Part shown: positions 3,028 through 42,400 of the stretch, piece by piece
Position numbering within the stretch: the first letter of the stretch is position 1
Layout: the number at the start of each line of letters is the position of its first letter
Source: a virus
Taxonomy: Duplodnaviria > Caudoviricetes
Strand: one strand, 5' to 3'
IMG/VR virus record: IMGVR_UViG_3300026505_000002
Span: 4,055-68,054 of that record
Length of the DNA: 64,000 nucleotides
Position numbers and translations under genes: made by a program
The notes under the pieces: generated by a model
Told to the model about the DNA's origin: nothing
Database searches by the model: none
What the model saw: only the letters and a program-made list of their open reading frames with translations

Positions 3028-4104
3028 ATGGAATCACCATTAGAAAAAAGAAGAAGAAAAGCTAAGAAAGCGGCTAAAGCTGCTATCAAAGCTGCTAAAA
3101 AATCTGCAAAAGCTAGCGTTAAGACTGCTAGAAAAGCGGACAAGGCCGACAGAAAAGCTGATAGAGCTGATAAGAAGGCAGACAGAAAAGACAAGAGAGC
3201 TACAAAGAAAGCTACAAGAGAAGAAAAAAAGTCTTTACAACCTGTTAAAGCGGGTAAAGCTAAGAGAAAAGCAAAACAAGCTGCAAGAAAAACTAAAAGA
3301 AACGAAGTTAAAGAGGCTCGTCAAGATAAAAGAGCAACTAAAAAGGAAGCTAGAAAAACTAAACGACAAGAAAACAAGTCTGAAAGAAAAGAAGCTAGAG
3401 CATCAAAGAAAGAAGTACGAGCTGCAAGACTAAGAGGAGAAATTACTAAAGACGAAGCTAAAGCTAAAAGAAAAGACATCCGTAAAACTAGAAAAGACGC
3501 TGTTAAAGAAAACAGAGAAGAGAAAAAAGCTGCTAGAAAAGGAGCAAGAGAAGAAATGAGGTCTAAAAGAAAAGATGCTAAGGCTAAAAAGAAAACAAGA
3601 ATAAAATTAGCTAGAGCTAAAAAGACAGGTGAATCTACTAAAAAGGTAGATGTACAAGAAACAAAGCTAACTGATGCGCAAAAAGCTAAGAACACAGCTA
3701 CAAAAGCCAAAAAAGCAGCAGAAGCAGCTAAGGAAGCTAAGCCAGCAGCTAAGCCAGCACCAAAACCATCAGAAGCTCCAAAGCCAAAAGGAGAACCAGT
3801 TATAAAAAAGGATGCTACTAAAAAAGCAGCTCCAGTAGCAGCGTCGGCTAAAGCTGAAGTTAAGTCTGAGGCTGTCAACAAGAAGGCAGGAGCAACTGTA
3901 GCAGGAGCATCGATGTATAGCAAGGGAACATCTATGATGAGAGCAGGGATGAAAGGACCATCTATGGGTGGCAAAATTCAATATGGTGCTCAATCAGGAA
4001 TGAACATGGGAAAATATGCTAAAGGAAACGGTAAACCAGCTATGTACAAAGGACCTAGCATGATTCTTACTAAGCATATGAAAACAAGATCAGGTAATAA
4101 GTAG
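3028..4104 (+). CDS. Lys/Ala/Arg-rich histone-H1-like basic protein
   Basis: KKAAKAAIKAAKK and KADRKAD-type low-complexity repeats, PAPKP linker, Met/Gly-rich C-terminus. Confidence 0.6.
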   Translation: MESPLEKRRRKAKKAAKAAIKAAKKSAKASVKTARKADKADRKADRADKKADRKDKRATKKATREEKKSLQPVKAGKAKRKAKQAARKTKRNEVKEARQDKRATKKEARKTKRQENKSERKEARASKKEVRAARLRGEITKDEAKAKRKDIRKTRKDAVKENREEKKAARKGAREEMRSKRKDAKAKKKTRIKLARAKKTGESTKKVDVQETKLTDAQKAKNTATKAKKAAEAAKEAKPAAKPAPKPSEAPKPKGEPVIKKDATKKAAPVAASAKAEVKSEAVNKKAGATVAGASMYSKGTSMMRAGMKGPSMGGKIQYGAQSGMNMGKYAKGNGKPAMYKGPSMILTKHMKTRSGNK

Positions 4105-18686: not shown

Positions 18687-18921
18687 AGCTGTAGACGAGT
18701 TAATTAAAGTAGCTGAAGAAAAAATCATTACACATACGGATGATGATGTATCAGCTGATAGATTAAAAAATGCTGCAGCAACTAAAAAGCTATGCATAAT
18801 GGATGCTTTTGAAATACTACAAAGAATAGAAGAGGAAGAATCTATTTTATCAGGTGATAGTAATAAGGTAGAAAGAGAAGTAAAATCATTTAAAGGTTTT
18901 GCAGAAGGGAGAAGTAAGTGA
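18640..18921 (+). CDS. putative terminase small subunit or helical partner
   Basis: helical protein directly upstream of and overlapping terL. Confidence 0.4.
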   Translation: MSTKETRKNIIRAGRKAVDELIKVAEEKIITHTDDDVSADRLKNAAATKKLCIMDAFEILQRIEEEESILSGDSNKVEREVKSFKGFAEGRSK

Positions 18922-21143
18922 GTTACGAACAGACGCTTTGGAAAGAAATTAAGGACGTTGTAAATCCTAAGATATTAGCTAAAAACAACAGATATAAAAA
19001 ATGGGAGTATGGTTATAACGTGGAGTATGATTTTGTAGTAATAAGTAAAACAGGTAAAATTGGATCAGTTATCGAAATACAAGGTCTCCGCATTGCTTTA
19101 CCAACAGCAGATGAACCGTATAAACGAAGCAAAAAACAAAAGGAACAATACTGGAAAAGATTTGAATATCCAAAAGAACTACAAAGAATAAAAAGTAGAT
19201 TTGATTGGGAGGAATATCCATTAGACTTTAAAGAAAAATGGTACGATTATATTGACAATGAATTTACTAGACGAGAACAAGGATTTTGGTTTTGTAACAA
19301 TGGTATTGATACTTACATTACTGGTACTCATTACATGTACTTGCAGTGGTCAAAGATCGACATTGGAGCGCCGGAATATAGAGAATCAAACAGATTATTT
19401 TTTATATTTTGGGAAGCTTGCAAAGCAGACACAAGATGTTACGGAATGTGCTATCTTAAAAACAGACGATCTGGATTTAGCTTCATGGCGAGCGCAGAGC
19501 TTGTTAATCAAGCCACAATATCAAGCGACTCAAGATTTGGTATACTCAGTAAATCAGGTGCAGATGCTAAAAAAATGTTTACAGATAAGGTTGTACCAAT
19601 ATCCGTTAACTATCCGTTTTTCTTCAAGCCAATTCAAGACGGTATGGATCGGCCAAAGACTGAGTTGGCATATAGGGTTCCAGCATCCAAACTTACTAGA
19701 AGAAAGCTGGAAGCTAATGAGCAACTAGAAGAGCTAGACGGACTTGATACGACTATTGACTGGAAAAATACTGGTGACAACTCTTATGATGGTGAGAAAC
19801 TAAAGATACTAGCACATGATGAAAGTGGTAAATGGGAAAGACCTGATAATATATTAAATAACTGGAGAGTTACAAAAACTACATTACGTCTAGGATCAAG
19901 AGTTGTAGGTAAATGTATGATGGGCTCAACCTCAAATGCTTTAGAAAAAGGTGGAGACAATTTCAAAAAACTATACTACAATTCAGACGTTACTGAAAGA
20001 AATAAAAACGGACAAACAACTTCTGGACTCTATAGCTTGTTCATACCTATGGAGTGGAACTACGAAGGATTCATGGATACTTACGGACTTCCTATCTTCA
20101 CATCTCCGACAAATCCAATCAAAACAATTGATGGTTCGGTTATTACGACAGGAGTTATCAAGCACTGGGAAAACGAAGTAGAAGGTTTAAAGCATGATCA
20201 AGACGCTTTAAATGAATACTACAGACAGTTTCCGCGTACAGAGCAACATGCTTTTAGAGACGAAACAAGAGATAGTTTATTTAATTTAACAAAGATATAT
20301 CAGCAAATTGATTTTAATGAAGAGTTAAATAATAGTATTAGTATTACTAAAGGAAACTTTGCTTGGGAGAATGGTATAAAAGATACTAAGGTGTTGTTCA
20401 TGCCAAATAATAAAGGTAGATTTTTAGTTTCTTGGGTACCAGACTTCAATATTCAAAATAACGTAATAATTAAAAATGGAACTAAATACCCAGGTAACGA
20501 ACATATTGGAGCTTTCGGCTGTGACTCTTACGATATTAGCGGTACTGTTGATGGTCGCGGCAGTAAAGGAGCACTTCATGGATTAACTAAGTTTAGTATG
20601 GAAAACTCTCCTACTAATCAATTTTTTTTAGAATATGTAGCTAGACCACAAACAGCTGAGATTTTCTTTGAAGACGTTTTAATGGCTTTGCATTTTTATG
20701 GTATGCCTTTATTAGCTGAAAATAATAAACCTAGATTATTATATTACCTAAAGCGTAGAGGATACAGAGGTTTTAGTATGAATAGACCAGATAAACTTTA
20801 CAACAAGTTATCAATAGCTGAAAGAGAAATAGGTGGAATACCTAACTCAAGCGAAGACATTAAGCAAGCACATGCTGCTGCAATAGAATATTATATTGAA
20901 AACTTTGTAGGTCAAATAGAAACGGGTTATGGTAATATGTATTTCCAAAGAACGTTAGATGACTGGGCAAGGTTTAACATAAATAATAGAACTAAATACG
21001 ATGCTGCAATAAGTTCTGGTTTAGCAATTATGGCTTGTAATAAGAATAAATATAGGCCTGTTGCGGTAAGAAATATAACACCTGTTAGTTTAGGCATACG
21101 TAGATACAACAATAAAGGATCTATTTCACAAATAATAAAATAA
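18918..21143 (+). CDS. terL: terminase large subunit
   Basis: Walker A-like KNRRSGFS, Walker B LAHDESGK, nuclease GCDSYD and KYDAAISSG. Confidence 0.9.
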   Translation: MSYEQTLWKEIKDVVNPKILAKNNRYKKWEYGYNVEYDFVVISKTGKIGSVIEIQGLRIALPTADEPYKRSKKQKEQYWKRFEYPKELQRIKSRFDWEEYPLDFKEKWYDYIDNEFTRREQGFWFCNNGIDTYITGTHYMYLQWSKIDIGAPEYRESNRLFFIFWEACKADTRCYGMCYLKNRRSGFSFMASAELVNQATISSDSRFGILSKSGADAKKMFTDKVVPISVNYPFFFKPIQDGMDRPKTELAYRVPASKLTRRKLEANEQLEELDGLDTTIDWKNTGDNSYDGEKLKILAHDESGKWERPDNILNNWRVTKTTLRLGSRVVGKCMMGSTSNALEKGGDNFKKLYYNSDVTERNKNGQTTSGLYSLFIPMEWNYEGFMDTYGLPIFTSPTNPIKTIDGSVITTGVIKHWENEVEGLKHDQDALNEYYRQFPRTEQHAFRDETRDSLFNLTKIYQQIDFNEELNNSISITKGNFAWENGIKDTKVLFMPNNKGRFLVSWVPDFNIQNNVIIKNGTKYPGNEHIGAFGCDSYDISGTVDGRGSKGALHGLTKFSMENSPTNQFFLEYVARPQTAEIFFEDVLMALHFYGMPLLAENNKPRLLYYLKRRGYRGFSMNRPDKLYNKLSIAEREIGGIPNSSEDIKQAHAAAIEYYIENFVGQIETGYGNMYFQRTLDDWARFNINNRTKYDAAISSGLAIMACNKNKYRPVAVRNITPVSLGIRRYNNKGSISQIIK

Positions 21144-23561
21144 ATGAAGATTACAAACACTTATAGCTCTTTTCCAGATCAGATAGTACCTGATGAGGTT
21201 AAACAAAGCATTGATTATGGCAGGCAAGTTGCAATGGCTATAGAAGGTGATTGGTTTAGCGGAACAAGATCTGGAGTTGAAAACAGATTTAATACTAATT
21301 ATAATAACTTCAGGATGCGTAGGCTTTATTCAAGAGCTGAACAACCTGTACAAAAGTATAAAGATGAATTAGCTATAAATGGTGATTTATCATATCTTAA
21401 TTTAGACTGGAAACCAGTTCCTATAATACCTAAGTTTGTAGATATAGTTGTTAATGGTATGGATGATAAAGTCTACGACATAAAAGCTTTTGCTCAAGAT
21501 CCAGAATCAAGACAACAAAGATCTAAGTATGCCGAAGATATATTAAGAGATATGCAGGCTAAAGATTTTTTAGTTTCTTTACAGCAAACTTTAAATTTAG
21601 ATTTATTTAATACTGAAAATCCTTCAAATCTACCTGAAAACAAAGATGAGCTAGACTTACACATGCAGTTAAGTTATAAGCAGGCTTCAGAAATAGCTTG
21701 TGAAGAAGCGGTTAATAATTCGCTTCAAATGAATAGGTATGATTTAACAAAGAAAAGATTACTTGAAGATTTAGTAGTGCTAGGTATGAGTGCTGTTAAA
21801 ACCAACTTTAATAAAGCTGAAGGTGTTACTGTAGAATATGTTGATCCAGCCCGCATGGTTTATTCTTATAGTGAGGATCCAAATTTTGAAGACCTATGGT
21901 ATGTAGGTGAAGTTAAACCTGTTACTTTAGCTGATGCTAAAAAACAGTTTCCTAATTTAACAGATTCAGAATTAGAAAGATTACAACAGTATCAAGGCAA
22001 TAGTAATTACTTGTATAATTACAATGGTAGAAGAGATGGTAATGCTATATATATAATGTACTTCGAGTACAAGACATATAGTGAACAAGTGTTTAAAATT
22101 AAAAAGACAGCTACAGGTCTAGAAAAAGCTTTAGAAAAACCAGATACTTTTAATCCACAAGAAAATGATAACTTTGATAGAGTTAGTAGATCAATAGAGG
22201 TTTTATATAGTGGTGCTAAAGTTCTAGGTTATGATATGATGTTAGACTGGAAGATGTCTGAAAATATGACAAGGCCAAAATCTAACTTAGTTAAAGTTAA
22301 CATGAACTACAACATATGTGCACCTAAAATGTATCATGGTAGAATAGAAAGCTTAGTAAGCCGTATGATGGGTTTTGCAGACATGATACAATTAACTCAT
22401 TTAAAAATACAACAAGTAATATCTAAGGTAATACCTGATGGTGTTTATTTAGATGTTGATGGGCTAGCAGAAGTAGATTTAGGTAATGGAACTACATATA
22501 ACGCTAAAGAAGCTTTAAATATGTATTTTCAAACTGGTAGTATATTAGGTAGATCGATGACTACTGAAGGTGACCCTAATAATGGTAGAGTGCCAATACA
22601 AGAGTTAGTCAAAAGTGATGGTGGTGGTAAAATAAATTCTTTAATACAAACTTATCAATACTATTTGCAAATGATAAGAGATGTAACCGGACTTAATGAA
22701 GCAAGAGACGGTAGTCAGCCAAATTCAGATTCGCTAGTTGGTTTACAAAAACTTGCTGCTGCTAACTCAAACACAGCTACTAAGCATGTATTAAATGCTT
22801 ATTTATACCTTACAGTAAGAACTTGTGAAAACATAGTGTTGAGAACTGCAGATAGTATAGAGTTTGCTTTAACTGAAGAAGCTTTAAAAAATAGTATATC
22901 AACTTGGAATGTTGGTCAATTAGATGATTTACGAAATATACATTTGTATGATTTTGGTTTATACATGGACTTGGTACCAGATGAACAAGAAAAAGAAATG
23001 TTAGAAGCTAATATTCAAGCAGCGCTTGCTAGTGGCAGTATCAACCTAGAAGATGCTATTGATATTAGACAAATAAATAATCTTAAGTTGGCTAATCAAA
23101 TGATTAAGCTAAAACGTAAGAAAGCTGCTGAAGCCGCTCAAGCTGCTAATATGGCAAACATACAAGCTCAGGCAGCTGCAAATGCCGAGGCTAGTGAAGC
23201 TGCTGCTATGGCAGAGGTACAGAAGCAACAAGCGGTGTTAGATACTAAACTAAAGTTTGAAAAAGGTAAATCTAGCTTTGAAGTAGAACGTATGAGAGTT
23301 GAAGCTCAAATTAAACGTGAGTTAATGGAACTTGAGTTTATGTATAACAAAGAACTTGGAGAGCAAAAAATAGGTATTGAAACTCGAAGAGAAAAAGATA
23401 TAGAAGATAGAAAAGATAAAAGAGCTAGAATAGTTGGCACTCAACAAAGTGCTATAGCTAATCAAAAACAAAAACAATTAGATGCAATAGACTTTGAGGA
23501 TCCATCGTCTATCGAGAGTTTACAAGATCCACTAGATAGTATACTACCTGAAGGTATGTAA
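21144..23561 (+). CDS. portal protein
   Basis: position after terL; WKPVPIIPKFVDIVVNG; 805 aa with C-terminal coiled coil. Confidence 0.8.
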   Translation: MKITNTYSSFPDQIVPDEVKQSIDYGRQVAMAIEGDWFSGTRSGVENRFNTNYNNFRMRRLYSRAEQPVQKYKDELAINGDLSYLNLDWKPVPIIPKFVDIVVNGMDDKVYDIKAFAQDPESRQQRSKYAEDILRDMQAKDFLVSLQQTLNLDLFNTENPSNLPENKDELDLHMQLSYKQASEIACEEAVNNSLQMNRYDLTKKRLLEDLVVLGMSAVKTNFNKAEGVTVEYVDPARMVYSYSEDPNFEDLWYVGEVKPVTLADAKKQFPNLTDSELERLQQYQGNSNYLYNYNGRRDGNAIYIMYFEYKTYSEQVFKIKKTATGLEKALEKPDTFNPQENDNFDRVSRSIEVLYSGAKVLGYDMMLDWKMSENMTRPKSNLVKVNMNYNICAPKMYHGRIESLVSRMMGFADMIQLTHLKIQQVISKVIPDGVYLDVDGLAEVDLGNGTTYNAKEALNMYFQTGSILGRSMTTEGDPNNGRVPIQELVKSDGGGKINSLIQTYQYYLQMIRDVTGLNEARDGSQPNSDSLVGLQKLAAANSNTATKHVLNAYLYLTVRTCENIVLRTADSIEFALTEEALKNSISTWNVGQLDDLRNIHLYDFGLYMDLVPDEQEKEMLEANIQAALASGSINLEDAIDIRQINNLKLANQMIKLKRKKAAEAAQAANMANIQAQAAANAEASEAAAMAEVQKQQAVLDTKLKFEKGKSSFEVERMRVEAQIKRELMELEFMYNKELGEQKIGIETRREKDIEDRKDKRARIVGTQQSAIANQKQKQLDAIDFEDPSSIESLQDPLDSILPEGM

Positions 23562-34489: not shown

Positions 34490-36417
34490 TGAGTGCAGTA
34501 AATTTACCTATAATAGAAGTAGACTACTACAATTGCATGTGGAATAAAAGAATTTTAACTCCACAAGGTTCGATGCAGACTGGAAATGCTACTGTGCCTG
34601 GCAGTACCGGTGTTGCTGCTCGTTATGGTACTTGGCCAATGAATAATGTTTACGCTAATCCAATGAGCACTACATATACAGCTGCTTTAATACCTCCTTT
34701 TAATGGTTCTAATATTAACGCATCTAGAGTAAAAGAGAACTTCTATATAGAAGAGATGTATCTTAGAGGCGGTTTTAACGACGCTTCTATGTCATACGGT
34801 GTTAGAGCTTACTTAGATGAAGAAGAACCATTACAGCAGCATAGATTTAATGCTTTAATATATTCAGGTATATATAATTCTAGAACTGGTATTAATAGAA
34901 CTAACGAATATGCTGTTGGAACTAATATAACTAAAGCTGCTAATCCTCAATATGGATCTATACAAAAGATATATGCTGAGGAAAACAACTTAATAGTACT
35001 ACAAGAAAATAAATGTAGTAGAGCTTTAATAGATAAGTCTGCTATATACAATGCTGAGGGTGGAGGTAATGTTACTACAACAAATCAAGTTATAGGTGAA
35101 ATAGTTCCTTATACAGGTGAGTACGGCATAAGTAAAAATCCAGAATCTTTTGCTATATATGCTTTTAGAAAATATTTTGTAGATAGAAATAGAAATGCGG
35201 TGCTAAGATTATCACATGACGGCATAACTGAAATATCAGAATATGGTATGCGTGATTATTTTAGAGACTCATTTGCAGAACTAACAGACGAGTTTGAGTT
35301 TACACAAACCACTATACCTGGTATAGGTACTACTAACCCTGCTAATTATAGTCAAAATTTATTAGGATTCAATAGTACAATTCCTAATACAGGTAACGCT
35401 GGTTATTCTTTTCAATATGGTGTAATGGGTAGTAAAATACTAGTACAATATAATAATACTGGTGATTATGTAGATTTAAACATTTTCTTTCAAGGGATAC
35501 AGTATTTATCAGGTAATAACTTTATAGTTTTAAATAGAACAATAACACCTGGCGAGCAGAACAATATAACAAGTATCAAGCTTGTAACTTTTAATAGAAG
35601 TAGAGTTTATGGTGGTTGGGATGCATACAATAAGCAATATGTAGTTTCTATACAACCTAACGAGTCTTTTACTTACACTCAGTCAACTACATTAGCCAGT
35701 CAAACTATACCTAAAAGATCTGTAAAATATGCTACATTAGGTTTTGACGAGCAAGTATCTGGTTGGCCTAGTTTTTATACTTACAAACCCAGTCAAATTG
35801 GTAGTTTAAAAAGCACATTTTATACTGTAAATTCAGATTGGTGGAATGACAATACAACTTTAATAAAACCAGGCATGTATTCACACTACTCAACAGCAGT
35901 GCCTCATAGTCAATTTTATGGTGTAAATAATAGAGCTGAGGTAAGTGTAATAGCTAATTCAATACCTTCACTTCAGAAAAACTTTTTAACTGTAGATTAT
36001 GAAGGAGATAGTGGTTGGCAAGCTAGCATATTAACTTCTGATAGAACAGGGTTTGACGATAAAAGAACTTTAAATGGTACTTGGACTGGTGATTGGGTAA
36101 AAAGTGTAGATTCAGGTGATCTTATATATAGCTACTTAGAAGGATCATATGATTCTGCAGGCAATACAGGATTAAATGCTAATCCTCAAAATCAACCTAT
36201 GGGTCACGCTGGTTTTAATAGAAAAGAAAATAGATATGTTGCTAACATAGTTAACAAGAGTACACCAGCCGCTGGAGAAGTTATATTTGGTGATAAGATG
36301 ACTGGCTTAAAAGGATTTTACATGGATGTAACATTTAGCACAGACGTAACTACAGATCCAGGCGGTATGAAAGAACTTTACTCTATAGGTTTAAACTATA
36401 GCGTATCATCACTTTAA
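34489..36417 (+). CDS. tail protein (propeller/stabilisation-like)
   Basis: GEYGISKNPESFA, DRNRNAVLRLSHDGITEIS, GWPSFYTY. Confidence 0.6.
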   Translation: MSAVNLPIIEVDYYNCMWNKRILTPQGSMQTGNATVPGSTGVAARYGTWPMNNVYANPMSTTYTAALIPPFNGSNINASRVKENFYIEEMYLRGGFNDASMSYGVRAYLDEEEPLQQHRFNALIYSGIYNSRTGINRTNEYAVGTNITKAANPQYGSIQKIYAEENNLIVLQENKCSRALIDKSAIYNAEGGGNVTTTNQVIGEIVPYTGEYGISKNPESFAIYAFRKYFVDRNRNAVLRLSHDGITEISEYGMRDYFRDSFAELTDEFEFTQTTIPGIGTTNPANYSQNLLGFNSTIPNTGNAGYSFQYGVMGSKILVQYNNTGDYVDLNIFFQGIQYLSGNNFIVLNRTITPGEQNNITSIKLVTFNRSRVYGGWDAYNKQYVVSIQPNESFTYTQSTTLASQTIPKRSVKYATLGFDEQVSGWPSFYTYKPSQIGSLKSTFYTVNSDWWNDNTTLIKPGMYSHYSTAVPHSQFYGVNNRAEVSVIANSIPSLQKNFLTVDYEGDSGWQASILTSDRTGFDDKRTLNGTWTGDWVKSVDSGDLIYSYLEGSYDSAGNTGLNANPQNQPMGHAGFNRKENRYVANIVNKSTPAAGEVIFGDKMTGLKGFYMDVTFSTDVTTDPGGMKELYSIGLNYSVSSL

Positions 36418-36418
36418 T

Positions 36419-37009
36419 ATGAAAGAAATAAATAATCAAATCAAAAATAATCCAATAACAAAAGAAGAAGCTAAAAAACAGTTTGTAGAAAAAACAAAAG
36501 AGCTAGGGCTAAAGCACGCTTTTGATTTTGAAGATGCTTGGGAGATAGGTAAAGAACTTCAACGTAAGAAACACTATAGAGCTAAAATGGAAGAGCTAAG
36601 TGAAAAATTACATAGTAATCCTGATTTTATTACAGGTGAAGAAGTTAAAAAGCTTAATCCACTTAAGCACATGTTTGCAGATGGTTGTTATATAAGAGAG
36701 ATATATAACCCAGCTGGTCAAATATTGTTAACTAAAATACACAAGAAAAAACATCCTTTCTTTTTAATGGAAGGTGAGATGCTTGTATTAACAGATAAAG
36801 GTATAGAAACCTTGGTAGCGCCACATTATGGTATAACAGAACCTGGTACTCAAAGAATTATTTATTCTAAAACAGGTTGTAAGTTTGTAACTGTTCATGC
36901 TACTGAAAGTACTAATATAGAAGAAATTGAAAAGGAAGTTATAGCTGATAACTATAAAGATCCTGAAATAACATTAGATCAAATTAACTTAATAAAAGAA
37001 AACATATGA
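36419..37009 (+). CDS. cupin-like domain protein
   Basis: HMFADGCYIREIYNPAG..LTKIHKKKHPFFLMEG. Confidence 0.6.
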   Translation: MKEINNQIKNNPITKEEAKKQFVEKTKELGLKHAFDFEDAWEIGKELQRKKHYRAKMEELSEKLHSNPDFITGEEVKKLNPLKHMFADGCYIREIYNPAGQILLTKIHKKKHPFFLMEGEMLVLTDKGIETLVAPHYGITEPGTQRIIYSKTGCKFVTVHATESTNIEEIEKEVIADNYKDPEITLDQINLIKENI

Positions 37010-37716
37010 GTTTTGTAGTAGGTACAATATTAATTTCAGCTGGAGTAGCAGCGGCCGCAGGTGTAACTGTTAGCAGTATAAACGCTAATCAAGCTAAGAA
37101 AGAAAGGTTTAGACAAGAAGATATAGCATCAACACAAGAACAGATGTTAGCAGATCTTGAAGCTAGCAGACCTGAGTTTAAAAACCCATATGAGAATATG
37201 CAAAATCAATTTAAAGATTTGAATAATCCATACGCTAATCTAACTGTAGCTACAGAAGCTTTTAAAATGGAGGCTGAACAAGCTGATCAAGCTTTAGCAA
37301 ATAGTTTAGACGTAATGATGGAAACAGGTCAAGCTGCTGGTGGTGCAACAGCTTTAGCTCAAGCAGCGTTACAAAGTAAAAGAGGTATAGCAGCTAGTAT
37401 ACAAGCTCAAGAAACTCAAAACAGAAAAATGGCTGCTCAAGGTGAAGCTAACGTAGCCATGGCAAAAGCTCAAGGAGCTCAAAGAGTAGATGAACTTAGA
37501 TCAAGAGGAGATGCTATGGAGCAACAAGACGCTATTGGTTTTCATGAGATGAAAATGGATAGAGCTGCTGGTTTAATGGAAAATGCGCAACAAAACGCCA
37601 AGGACGCGCAAGCAGCTAGAACTGCAGCTATCATGGGTATAGGTGATTCAATTGCTAGCGGAGCTTCAATGGTTGGTAGTGCTGCAGCTGGTGGGGCTGG
37701 AAAGTGGGGAAAGTAA
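37006..37716 (+). CDS. internal virion/ejection protein (N-terminal hydrophobic, Ala/Gln-rich coiled coil); probable -1 frameshift extension to 37814
   Basis: T7 gp14-like composition; G GGA AAG at 37707-37713 immediately before TAA. Confidence 0.6.
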   Translation: MSFVVGTILISAGVAAAAGVTVSSINANQAKKERFRQEDIASTQEQMLADLEASRPEFKNPYENMQNQFKDLNNPYANLTVATEAFKMEAEQADQALANSLDVMMETGQAAGGATALAQAALQSKRGIAASIQAQETQNRKMAAQGEANVAMAKAQGAQRVDELRSRGDAMEQQDAIGFHEMKMDRAAGLMENAQQNAKDAQAARTAAIMGIGDSIASGASMVGSAAAGGAGKWGK

Positions 37717-37824
37717 AAACCGGGAGCGGTGATAATACTTCAGCTGGAAATGATTATGACGATCTAGATTTAGGTAGTTTTGATTCTTCAAACCCAATGT
37801 ACGGTATAGGTTAAAAAAAATATT

Positions 37825-39462
37825 ATGAGTTATAGAAACCCAAAAAGAATAGTAGATAAAAGATTTGATGTAATGCTCAAAGGAGCTAGTCAAATAACTA
37901 ACACCATGATGCAGGGTGTTCAGCAAATGACTAATAATGTTATCAAACAAAAAGAACAAGTTAGAAAGCAACAAGAATTAGTAGATAATGAAATGCAGAG
38001 CATGTATAGCATGGCTAACAAGTTCGGCACTTCAGGAGATCCTTTGTTAGATAATAATTTAGTTAGTTTTTGGAATGGTAAAGTTGATGAATACTTTGAT
38101 GTAAAAAATAGAATGCAATCTGGTGAAATATCTAGACAAGAAGGCAACATGGCTTTATCTAAAATAAAAGGATTAGTTCCTAAGTTTCAAACTATGTTTG
38201 GTTATATAGCTCAAGAAACAGCAAGCTATGGTGAAAATTTAAAAAATAATAATGTATCTTCTACTGGGTCTATGCAGAACAAAGATATGTTAGGTACTTT
38301 TATGCAAGGTGGAGATATTCAAATAGCAGAAAGAGGTGGTAATATATATTTCTTCAAGCCAAATGATGCTGTAAAAGGAGAAGCTGAGTTTTCACTTAGC
38401 GAAGATATGAAGACTGGTAATGCTTCTATGTTAAATGGAGATGAGCTAATAGCTATGGCTAATCAAGGAAAAAGTCTTTTTAATCAAAAAGCAGATATAT
38501 CACAGTTGACAACTACATTAGCTGAAAAAATTAGTAATCCTGATGGACCTAGTCCTTATTTTGAAACTATAAAATTAAGAGCTGGTAGTCAAGATCCTTT
38601 TAATCCAGATAGAACTATAGAAAACATACCGGAAGGTATGGAATATGAATATCAAACAATGATACCTGAGCAAAGAGAACAGCTATTACTTGATATGGAA
38701 AATAGTCCTATGACACAAACTATAATGTCAGATGATAAAAGAATGTTATCTGTTTTTCAAGATGATATTCCTGACAATGCAGAAGCTAGCAATGGTAATG
38801 GCATGTCTATACAAGAAATTTCTGCTAGGTTAATTGAAGACTCTGGCTTAACTGAACAAGAGTGGTTGTCATCAATGGGTTTAACTAGTATGAACGAACT
38901 TGAAAACTCTTCATGGCATGAGGCACCTGCTAACTTATCGCTTGAGCAAAAAACAGCTTTATCAAATACTCAAGATCAAATAGCTAAGAAGTTTATAGCA
39001 CTTAAAGCGTTCAACGACAACATAGATTCTGATGGTATTGGTAAACTATTAACTAAAAACAAAATAATTACTGAGCCTACAGACTCTGAAAGTGCAGGAT
39101 CTGAAGTAGTAGACTTTGATAAAGGTTTTTCTGCTGCTACTATATATAGCCCTAATGATATAAAGACTTACAAAGCTTTAATGAAAGATGAAGAGTTCTT
39201 AGACAAAGAAATAAAAGATATAACAAATAGAGTTGATAGCGGAGAGGAAGTTGATTTTGATGCTGAAAGAAAAAGGCTAGCGCAGTTACAGGGATATGGG
39301 TCAATAGGCGATGATGATAATTATGGCTTCGTATCAACAGCAGGTCAACTTTTAACAGCTATTAGAGAGATTAAAAAGATGGATCAAGAATATCTAGATT
39401 TTAAATCTAAGTATAGTCAATATCAAAACAAATCAAATAATAATAAACCAACTCTATATTAA
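37825..39462 (+). CDS. internal virion/ejection protein
   Basis: position between small and giant ejection-type genes; helical. Confidence 0.5.
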   Translation: MSYRNPKRIVDKRFDVMLKGASQITNTMMQGVQQMTNNVIKQKEQVRKQQELVDNEMQSMYSMANKFGTSGDPLLDNNLVSFWNGKVDEYFDVKNRMQSGEISRQEGNMALSKIKGLVPKFQTMFGYIAQETASYGENLKNNNVSSTGSMQNKDMLGTFMQGGDIQIAERGGNIYFFKPNDAVKGEAEFSLSEDMKTGNASMLNGDELIAMANQGKSLFNQKADISQLTTTLAEKISNPDGPSPYFETIKLRAGSQDPFNPDRTIENIPEGMEYEYQTMIPEQREQLLLDMENSPMTQTIMSDDKRMLSVFQDDIPDNAEASNGNGMSIQEISARLIEDSGLTEQEWLSSMGLTSMNELENSSWHEAPANLSLEQKTALSNTQDQIAKKFIALKAFNDNIDSDGIGKLLTKNKIITEPTDSESAGSEVVDFDKGFSAATIYSPNDIKTYKALMKDEEFLDKEIKDITNRVDSGEEVDFDAERKRLAQLQGYGSIGDDDNYGFVSTAGQLLTAIREIKKMDQEYLDFKSKYSQYQNKSNNNKPTLY

Positions 39463-42400
39463 TGAGTCCAAACGAACAACGATTAAGATCTTTATACAAT
39501 AAAGCTGTTCAGCATTTTAGCTTACCAGACTTTGAAAAATTTGTACAAGACATACAGAATCCTGACGTATTAGAAAAGGTTAGAGAAGGTTTATCTGAGT
39601 ATTATAATGTTCCATCTTCAGAGCAAATGATGGAAGATTTATTTAACATAGTACCTGGAAAAGAAGATCGTATTAATTCAGCCGTTGCTGACAAACTGCC
39701 AGAGCCAGATATGGATTTAGCTAAGACAATGTTTGAAGCTATAGATAACAAAGACGAGGAAAGCGGCTTCTTACCACCTGAGGAAATATCAATGGTTGCT
39801 GACCAAGTTGTACAACCTGTTTATAATATAAACGCAATACAGCAAGATTTAGAAAATCCTTTAGTAGCTGCAGAAATAAAACATGAACAAGATAAGTATG
39901 ACAAGTTAAGTCCAGTAGATCAGTTTGAGTTTAGAGAACCAGAAACAGCTGCCAAATTAAAACCTTTAGTAGAAGAGTATAGACAAACGTTATCTAATAT
40001 AAACGAGTCTGACGAAGAATATAAGAAAACTTTGCTTGCTAACTTTATAGAAGAAGATTTAAGTGAACCTACTTCAGAGGGAGAAAAATTAAATTTAGAA
40101 ACGGTAAATTTGCCAGATGCTCCAACACCAATGGAGAGACTTGATCGGCTTGTGGGTACTAATGCTGTAGACAGGTTATTTATAGATGATGAAAAGCCTG
40201 CTTGGATGTCTGATCAAGTTTATCAAGAAGTAAAACACTACAAAGAAACTGGAGAAATAAGCGATAGTGTAATAGATAAAGCATCTGATCAATTAAAAAC
40301 TCAAACACTAAACAAAGTTAAGTCAGACAAACTTAATGCGTTCTACCATGCTAATAAAGATTTAACTCAAACAGATAGAAATAAATTAACAGCTTTACTT
40401 GCTGATCAAGTTGAGGGAGGTTTAGACTTTAAGAGTGTTATGGACTTGTCTAATAATCCTAGCTTAATGGATTTACAAGCTAAAAATATACAACTTAGAT
40501 CTAGTGAGATTTCTAAAAAAATGAAGTCTATACAAGAGCAACAAGATGAGTTAGATAATAATGAACAATTTTTAGAGTTAAATAGCCAAGCAGAAGAAAT
40601 ACAAAAGCAGCTAGATGTAATGGACAAAAATGGAATTAGCAATGATTCTCCTGAGTCTATTAAGAAAGAGTATAATGGTTTGTTAGCATCTTACAATGGT
40701 GTTATTGATGAGTACAAATCTAGTGGTTTATTAGATAAAAGAGAAAAGCTAGCTGAAGATATTATAGCTTGGAATAAAGAACGTGATTCTTTATTATCAG
40801 ATTCTAATGAACTAGGAGATGTATCTTTAAGCTTGGAACTTGCCACTAAAAACTTTTCTTCTTTAGATAAAGCTATTTTAGCTATGGAACAGTCATTTCT
40901 AGGCGCTACAGCATCTACAGTTGGAACTACATTAGGAATGGTAGGTGAGGTTATAGACGAAACGATAGGTGAAAAAGACGCCAATGCTTTATCTAGTTTT
41001 TTAAATAAAGTAGAAGGTGTAGCTTTAGATTATAATGAAAGCTTACAACAAGAGATGGCGGTAGCAATGGCACCTAAACCCTCAATGAGTGATGCTTGGG
41101 ATGCTGGAGCTTTAAGCGGTTATATTAGCCAAAGCTTTGCAGAAGGTACGCCTAGTATTGCTACAGTGCTTATGACTAGATTTGGAGGTAAAATGTCAAG
41201 TCCTAGTAAAAAAGCTATTAACAAAGCTTCTGGTCCTGAAAGATTTAAGCTACAAGCTAAAGCTAACGTGGCTCAAGCTAGAGCTAGTAAAATTGCTCAA
41301 GGTATATTTTTTAATATGAGTTATGGACTAAAAGGTTCAGAAATAAATATAGCCCAACGTAACGCGCCTAAAGCTATAATGGAGTTAGAAAAAAAGCTAG
41401 ACTCTGGCTTGTTAAGTCCTTTTGAAATAGCTGAAACTAAAAATCAAATAGAAGAACTTAATAGAGTTAAAGACCTTAATGTACTTCAAAAAGCAGGATC
41501 TCAATTAATTTCTGGCAGTGTAGATATGTACAGTGAACGTTTAGGTACATTAAGCTATATGAAGAACTTAAACAGAATAGCAGCGCCTGTAGGATCTACA
41601 ATGTTTAAAAAAGCTATGTATCAAGGGTTAAACCTAGGTATAAACGTAGGTACTGAAATAGTAGAAGAAACAGCGGCTCAAATAGGTAACAATCTTTCAG
41701 ACATATACATACTAGGTGAAAACAAATCTATACTAGACGGCATAGATGCTGAGTTTGCTTTTAATGTTGGTTTAACTAGTTTAGCTATACAAGGCCCTAG
41801 TATTGGTAGTAATTTATATGCCATGCTAGGAGACAATGTTAAAACTAAAAGGGATTACGAATTTGACAAGTCTAACTTTGATAGATTAATAGAAATAGAA
41901 AACTCTTTGAATGATGGCACTAAAAGATCTAAAAAAGAAAAACAAATATTAAAAGCTGAACAAGACTTAATATTAGAACAAGCTGCTTTTAGAAATATAG
42001 AAAACGTAGAAAAGCTAAGCGCTTTGAGTGAGGCACAACAAATAGAATTATTTGATTTAATAAGCCAAAGAAAAAAATATATAAGCAATTTAAGAGAGCT
42101 TGGTGACAGAGCTGGTCAAGCAGATCCTGGAAGTAAAGCTATAAAAAAACAAAAACAACAATTTGTTAATGAGTATAAATCTGTAGATACACAAATAGAA
42201 AAGCTTTTAAACACTAGAAGAACAAAAGCTGCTGAAGATCAAAAAAATGCTACTGATCCTGCCATGGCGGCTTACCATCAAGGATTGTTTGAATTTTACA
42301 ATAATACAGTAGGTGTATCACAAGAATTAAACGGTAAGAAGTATACAGAAGTTGATAGTCAAACAACAGTTGAAGAATTAAGAGAACTTTATGGAGACAG

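Follow-up and report, generated by a model that had tools for sequence, protein, structure and literature searches.

A probable programmed -1 ribosomal frameshift site at the 3' end of a putative cargo protein gene in podovirus-type phages of marine flavobacteria

Introduction

C-terminal extensions derived from ribosomal frameshifting are well known among the structural proteins of phages, including the G/GT proteins of lambda and proteins of Listeria phages. The G/GT site of lambda is a fixed-ratio device in virion assembly. Some slippery sequences are favoured: in Escherichia coli, the heptamers G_GGA_AAG and A_AAA_AAG are highly shift-prone, and gene 10 of phages T7 and T3 frameshifts as well, the two forms being known as 10A and 10B (PMC5009743). 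Frameshifting at GGGAAAG has been described in the capsid gene of the Proteus podophage Privateer, and in phiEco32-like phages (PMC7881722). In the crassvirus crAss001 the cargo proteins gp45 and gp46 follow the muzzle protein gp44 in gene order, and precede giant polymerase-related cargo proteins (PMC10172136). A search of the literature on crassviruses and flavobacterial podophages found no report of frameshifting in a cargo or ejection gene.

The sequence analyzed here, called the window, is a stretch of 64,000 nucleotides from the IMG/VR virus record IMGVR_UViG_3300026505_000002 (positions 4,055 to 68,054 of the record), and belongs to an uncultured podovirus-type phage of marine flavobacteria. 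A first-pass annotation, made from the letters alone, had pointed to a GGGAAAG heptamer at the end of one gene, regarding this heptamer as usual in the tail-assembly chaperones of long-tailed phages and its presence in a podoviral internal/ejection protein as unusual. The gene class is unusual indeed, but the occurrence in podoviruses is not, as Privateer and the phiEco32-like phages, along with T7/T3 gene 10, already illustrate. Comparison with homologous loci suggests that the gene at 37006-37716 very probably holds a genuine programmed -1 frameshift site, from which two isoforms differing at the C-terminus would be made (probability about 0.87).

Results

The putative shift site in the window

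Features of the locus are listed in Table 1. The 0-frame of the gene ends with the codons ...GGA AAG TGG GGA AAG TAA, and the slippery heptamer is made by the last G of TGG and the two codons that follow. The extension frame starts at GTA, the G of which is shared with the heptamer, and terminates 10 nt upstream of the ATG of the next gene. The hairpin, made by 4 bp, starts exactly 5 nt past the heptamer. Codons at the gene end, phase of the heptamer directly before the stop, 33 open codons filling the 108-nt gap up to TAA, and the ACCG-GGAG-CGGT hairpin had all been reported in the first-pass annotation, and all are seen as claimed.

Table 1. Coordinates of the features found at the candidate frameshift locus of the window.
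Feature	Position	Strand	Remarks
0-frame gene	37006..37716	+	236 aa (P0001); all-helical model; without Pfam/PHROG family; >2714 homologues
Slippery heptamer G GGA AAG, X XXY YYZ phase	37707..37713	+	same or equivalent in-phase heptamers in 16/18 cassette loci
0-frame stop TAA, abutting the 3' end of the heptamer	37714..37716	+	first three of the five spacer nucleotides (37714-37718)
Putative stimulatory hairpin, stem ACCG/CGGT, loop GGAG	37719..37730	+	-5.1 kcal/mol; covariation; sole consensus structure
-1-frame extension, 33 codons plus TAA at 37812-37814	37713..37814	+	homologous extensions in L009 and L004
AATACT (Asn-Thr in the extension frame)	37734..37739	+	nucleotide-level conservation in 11/12 homology-found cassette loci
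Next gene, 545 aa	37825..39462	+	bounds the 108-nt gap filled by the extension; N-terminus of the M-S-Y-x-N-P-x-R-I type conserved

Each component of the site is rare in the window. Only 0.1% of the -1-frame positions in the large genes are open for at least 33 codons, and perfect stems (4 bp or longer, 3 or more GC pairs) closing loops of 4–6 nt start at 0.066% of the positions. In-phase GGGAAA[AGT] or AAAAAAG heptamers are found 11 times in the window ORFs, and the one at 37707-37713 is the only one featuring both a hairpin 5 nt downstream and an abutting stop. The co-occurrence of heptamer, hairpin and open -1 frame exceeds chance.

The interval is present in 20 public seawater runs. Contigs assembled from two DNA and two RNA-library (metatranscriptome) runs were compared with the window over positions 37300-38100 (801 nt), and neither differences nor gaps were found; as contigs were compared, rare RNA variants and expression are invisible in these data, and DNA may be present in RNA libraries. 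The 236-aa protein is encoded without change on 81 contigs, and near-identical variants ending with the same C-terminus occur in other assemblies. An assembly indel at the site, against which the first-pass annotation had advised a check, is excluded, since the contigs of all four runs match the window across the site.

Gene order and predicted protein

The gene resides in an array encoding, in order, a 1637-aa protein, a 642-aa muzzle-like protein, a fibre-like protein, the 236-aa target, and proteins of 545 and 3041 aa. The muzzle-like protein matches crAss_MUZ_C below the Pfam cut-off (23.9 vs 27 bits). The ATG of the target gene overlaps the stop of the fibre-like gene (ATGA, 37003-37009), as would suit translational coupling within a densely packed late operon. 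PHROG matches elsewhere in the window identify a terminase (18918-21143), a portal (21144-23561) and capsid-like proteins. The portal is the only protein that finds cultured relatives, namely Elemovirus, Cellulophaga, Maribacter and Tenacibaculum phages (40–47% identity). No match to cultured phages was obtained in a DNA search with the interval 36400-39500, nor in tblastn searches with the 236-aa and 545-aa proteins. In Flavobacterium phage elemoF the corresponding position is taken by gp20, which carries the annotation of a virion structural protein; its similarity to the target is marginal (E = 0.013), and the cassette, as the combination of heptamer, hairpin and open -1 frame is called here, is absent from it.

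The target protein has a hydrophobic segment at its N-terminus and is predicted to form long helices; its C-terminus is rich in Gly and Ala. The AlphaFold model is all-helical and of low confidence (pLDDT 62.7). Neither Pfam nor PHROGs hold a family for the protein; 26 members of its family have no Pfam match at E values up to 5, and the family profile finds no match among PDB sequences, the crAss001 cargo proteins included. In a language-model search, the nearest named neighbours were clusters of T7 gp14-like and P22 gp7-like proteins (0.94 and 0.89), which HMMs did not confirm. Membership in the T7 gp14 or P22 gp7 ejection protein families (PF24072, PF25688) was rejected, as both are language-model neighbours only, with no Pfam match. 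Assignment to the tail assembly chaperones of the lambda G/GT type was similarly rejected, the gene being located between the muzzle-/fibre-like and the 545-aa/3041-aa genes, with no tape-measure context. Judging from gene order and architecture only, the 236-aa protein is probably a cargo or ejection component of the virion. The first-pass annotation had called it an ejection protein; location downstream from muzzle-/fibre-like genes and upstream from the 545-aa and 3041-aa genes, hydrophobic N-terminus and helices speak for the name, but no family match was obtained.

Short Asn-Pro motifs recur in the region. The 545-aa protein starts with M-S/G-Y/F-x-N-P-x-R-I/V in the window (37825-37870) and in very divergent lineages (L005, L014, L171, L173, and others). 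Two similar N-P-Y motifs are found in the target protein, at about residues 60–76, and an Asn-Pro or Pro-aromatic motif also closes several of the extensions. The N-P motifs of the target, the extensions and the 545-aa protein may represent a short linear motif shared by putative cargo proteins.

Homologous loci

Homologous loci were fetched from viral and metagenome collections, and 147 out of 168 have distinct 3' ends. Relatives in IMG/VR number about 534, and up to 80 per search entered the comparison. In 140 of the 147 distinct loci the next gene starts less than 60 nt away. The gap measures 91–164 nt in the remaining 7, and in each of these the -1 ORF fills the gap, ending 7–20 nt before the next ATG. 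An eighth gap-type locus, L025, is interrupted by the contig end. In-phase GGGAAAN or AAAAAAG heptamers adjoining the stop mark 6 of these 8 homology-found cassette loci, as against 1 of the 140 gapless loci (Fisher p = 1.5e-8).

The set was enlarged in two ways. Further look-ups of homologues added the cassette loci L171/172, L173/174, L175/176, L177/178 and L179/180. A DNA pattern derived from the cassette produced six matches, corresponding to five more distinct loci (L230, L193, L226, to which L201 is identical, L185 and L194); in these five, hairpin similarity is by construction. All adjoin distant homologues of the target protein (41–53% identity). The cassette loci analyzed are thus 18 distinct ones, the five found by pattern included, with protein identities of 40–100%.

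Eight loci carry G GGA AAG at the shift site, and G GGA AAT and A AAA AAG were found in four loci each. The two remaining loci lack a canonical heptamer at 5-nt spacing: L004 carries T TCA AAG, and in L010 the heptamer would be C CCG GGG, with a spacing of 2 nt, or G GTC CCG, with one of 5 nt. A conserved heptamer and an open -1 frame in homologues, which the first-pass annotation had suggested looking for, are both found, heptamers being in phase in 16 of the 18 loci and the frame being open in all.

The hairpin

A GC-rich hairpin is located exactly 5 nt past the heptamer in 17 of 18 cassette loci. The 0-frame stop immediately follows the heptamer in 13 loci and is found 3 nt further downstream in 5, yet the 5-nt spacer to the hairpin is kept. 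Since the position of the stop varies and that of the hairpin does not, the conserved distance is the one between heptamer and hairpin, as expected of a frameshift stimulator.

Five unrelated hairpin sequences were found, which correspond to the RCCG/GNAG/CGGY class and to the hairpins of L128, L025, L157 (5 bp, 6-nt loop) and L074 (6 bp). Predicted energies range from -4.5 to -9.5 kcal/mol across the cassette loci. In the 15 loci in which stem arms and loop all measure 4 nt, each of the 60 cells is paired, and all 4 pairs feature double (compensatory) changes; none of 500 shuffles came up to these values of pairing or covariation. The closing pair, A-T in 5 loci and G-C in 10, is never mismatched, and its 3' base falls at a synonymous third position of the extension frame. 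The hairpin nucleotides double as codons of a conserved Gly-Ser-Gly motif, and RNA and peptide constraints are therefore partly confounded.

This hairpin alone is present in the RNAalifold consensus. A larger structure, in which AAGUA at the shift site would pair with a conserved downstream UACUU, was considered and rejected, being found in some lineages only and absent from the consensus. The sequence AATACT, a few nucleotides past the hairpin, is kept at both synonymous positions, also next to unrelated hairpins (L128, L025). This constraint may act on RNA or on the peptide.

The extension as coding sequence

Among the six frames, the proposed -1 frame is the only one free of stops in all 18 loci. 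Synonymous exceeds non-synonymous divergence (pS > pN) in the extension frame in 10 of 10 pairs, and less consistently in the other two frames; pN/pS is about 0.2–0.8 in these short and noisy alignments, which points to weak purifying selection. Extensions vary in length from 18 to 54 codons, in keeping with the length of the gap. They share a motif just past the shift, and diverge thereafter.

In the window, 7 of the 33 residues of the extension are Asp, and the sequence ends in an Asn-Pro-Met-Tyr-Gly motif. An Asp-rich stretch and a C-terminal Pro-Met-Tyr-Gly are common to the window, L009 and L004. A second type, rich in Thr, Ser, Gly and Pro, is found in L010, L173, L177 and L179. The acidic tail reported in the first-pass annotation is therefore a feature of the window and not a general one, several lineages having neutral Thr/Ser/Gly/Pro-rich extensions. 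In-frame fusions of either type were not found among longer proteins, which is weak evidence, because the candidates were crowded by low-complexity words; the first-pass annotation had held that homologues encoding the extension in frame would speak against frameshifting, and with the same reservation no such version was detected.

A relative at 85% identity, L170, carries a run of 11 A residues at the position of the shift site (L170:1890-1903), and reads on in frame for about 27 aa, the tail stopping 10 nt short of the next gene. The A11 run would itself be prone to slippage or sequencing error. Homology of this tail to the window extension was considered and is unsupported (E = 0.21).

In L175 and L176 gene callers treat the downstream portion of the extension as a small ORF of its own, starting from an internal ATG (L175:1655-1756, L176:1093-1158). 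By this route, public protein sets come to contain fragments of extensions as orphan peptides.

Alternative readings of the locus

The -1 ORF could be an independent small gene, measuring 36 aa from GTG 37704 in the window, and translated through its own initiation or through termination-reinitiation. The GTG that precedes the shift point by 3 codons in the -1 frame, and the separate ORFs called in L175/L176, would agree with this. However, 6 of the 18 -1 ORFs lack any ATG, GTG or TTG, and most others have start codons only after the Gly-Ser-Gly-x-Asn-Thr motif. An independent gene would moreover leave unexplained both the phase of the heptamer relative to the upstream gene and the invariant 5-nt spacing of the hairpin. 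This reading is highly improbable.

In a second reading, the polymerase rather than the ribosome slips, and a subpopulation of the mRNA is one base shorter. Runs of 6–7 A residues are found at the site in L009, L171, L175 and L179, and the A11 run of L170, where the tail is read in frame, would suit such a process. In the window and in most lineages, however, the site contains only three A residues (GGGAAAG or GGGAAAT), too few for known cases of transcriptional slippage, and a hairpin conserved at 5 nt fits a ribosomal mechanism. Contigs from the RNA libraries are also identical to DNA, though contigs cannot reveal minority variants. Transcriptional slippage is accordingly rated a little lower than the independent gene.

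It is very hard to believe that the 108-nt gap is non-coding, either as a spacer with a small regulatory hairpin or as part of an antisense gene, and that the open -1 frame is incidental. The extension does evolve fast, and a minus-strand ORF of 102 aa, starting with TTG, spans 37666-37974. Yet none of the reverse frames stays open consistently in the 18 loci, and this ORF was rejected as a gene on these grounds, whereas the proposed frame is open in all. Stretches of open -1 frame as long as that of the window are as rare as noted above, and the length of the extension follows that of the gap over its whole range, from 18 to 54 codons.

A last view is that the arrangement arose through an indel, introduced in assembly or sequencing, or through recent breakage of the C-terminus, which would have left a pseudogenised in-frame tail. 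It draws on the close relative L170 (P0014), whose in-frame tail is comparable in length and position. For practical purposes this view can be set aside, given that four runs yielded independent contigs with the same sequence over the site, 18 distinct lineages, with junctions that differ in sequence, have the -1 arrangement, the tail of L170 is not significantly similar to the window extension, and an in-frame version of either extension type was not found among 5.8 billion proteins (weak evidence in itself).

Distribution of the cassette

To account for its distribution on a tree of 165 family members, the cassette must have been gained or lost no fewer than 8 times (11 by parsimony). In the clade of the window it is found in 9 of 11 rows; elsewhere it marks single lineages, the sisters of which are without it. 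Hairpins of the RCCG/GNAG/CGGY class and the adjoining AATACT have nearly identical nucleotides in lineages whose proteins are 41–53% identical. Near-identical copies of hairpin plus AATACT are located at L185:8777-8818, L194:533-574, L226:2878-2919, L193:1671-1712 (minus strand) and L230:1279-1320 (minus strand), the five loci found by pattern, in which the likeness is partly by construction. The near-identity of the 3' nucleotides hints at either strong constraint or exchange of a 3' module between phage lineages.

The near-identical nucleotides at 41–53% protein identity, taken with the at least 8 gains or losses on the tree, are the ground for a bolder proposal, which is tentative and on balance doubtful. 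Heptamer, 5-nt spacer, mini-hairpin and Gly-Ser-Gly-x-Asn-Thr extension might form a portable 3' recoding module, spread by recombination among distant marine flavobacterial podophages, which would set a fixed sub-stoichiometric amount of tagged ejection-protein isoform. If so, the module would dock a few copies of the protein to, for example, the portal, the muzzle or the next cargo protein. It would also be the first described recoding event in a component of the podoviral ejectosome, relying on a minimal 4-bp stimulator in Bacteroidota translation.

Discussion

The locus combines several of the features by which programmed -1 sites are known: a heptamer in phase, a -1 ORF kept open, a covarying hairpin, a -1 ORF that lacks any start codon in 6 of 18 loci, and no assembly error. 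What the sequences show is an in-phase heptamer, a hairpin conserved in spacing and pairing, a gap filled by the maintained -1 frame, and a shortage of independent start codons. The proposal of the first-pass annotation, a programmed -1 frameshift giving a short and an extended isoform, gains support from the same set of observations: there is no indel, homologues carry the cassette, start codons are missing from several -1 ORFs, the hairpin covaries, and no in-frame version was detected. The putative hairpin is small (4–6 bp) compared to classical stimulators. That ribosomes slip here, how often they would do so, and that the hairpin stimulates the slip are what we infer.

The site might work as follows. 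Most ribosomes would read GGA AAG and stop at TAA, and the 236-aa protein would be the major product. In a fraction of the ribosomes the tRNAs paired to GGA and AAG would slip in tandem, and re-pair on GGG and AAA. The GC hairpin found 5 nt downstream is the proposed promoter of the slip, to which slow decoding of the adjacent stop could contribute. Ribosomes that slipped would read GTA AAA ACC... and go on for 33 codons, to make a minor isoform of 269 aa with an Asp-rich tail. The extension would consist of a flexible linker and a short C-terminal Pro/aromatic motif, marking a fixed minority of the copies. As a speculation, the Pro/aromatic motif may tether the marked copies to another part of the virion.

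The locus is a well-supported new example of a known trick, almost certainly shared, as far as sequence comparison can tell, by the phage of the window and at least 17 related lineages. Gene callers truncate the protein, or leave a gap, in every lineage examined. The putative isoform of a virion-module protein is thus missing from the annotations of a very abundant group of marine phages (>2700 homologues). Translation in Bacteroidota is largely without Shine-Dalgarno interactions, and heptamer, 5-nt spacer and 4-bp hairpin make up a compact natural test case for -1 frameshifting in these bacteria. The missed isoform and the minimal stimulator are where the main value of the locus lies. The locus also suggests that phages adjust the relative amounts of cargo or ejection proteins through recoding, in the way known for capsid and tail proteins.

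Among known systems, the cargo proteins gp45 and gp46 of crAss001 are comparable for position, downstream from a muzzle-like gene and upstream from very large virion proteins, and for the predicted transmembrane helix and helical character. They differ because they have no detectable sequence similarity to the target and measure about 800 rather than 236 aa, and no frameshift is reported for the crAss001 cargo genes.

The dnaX gene of E. coli (tau/gamma) also features a heptamer, A AAA AAG, with a stem-loop a few nucleotides downstream, and four of the lineages described here use the same heptamer. The dnaX stem is much longer, is assisted by an upstream Shine-Dalgarno-like stimulator, and the frameshift truncates the product. 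At the loci analyzed here the hairpin measures 4–6 bp, no upstream element was identified, and the frameshift would extend the protein.

With lambda G/GT the window shares the identical heptamer, similarly placed close to the end of the upstream ORF. In contrast to lambda, tape-measure and tail-tube genes are missing from the context, the -1 ORF encodes a short tail rather than a second domain, and a conserved hairpin is present.

Further parallels are T7/T3 gene 10 and the capsid genes of Privateer and phiEco32-like phages. The products of the T7/T3 and Privateer genes are major capsid proteins, whereas the protein described here is small, helical and membrane-anchored by prediction, and is encoded at a cargo/ejection position. 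The extension is of low complexity and measures 18–54 aa, and the cassette is found in a minority of the family members. The heptamer is the same GGGAAAG as in Privateer. In these capsid genes a -1 slip close to the end of the gene yields a major short form and a minor form extended at the C-terminus, as it would in the virion-module gene described here.
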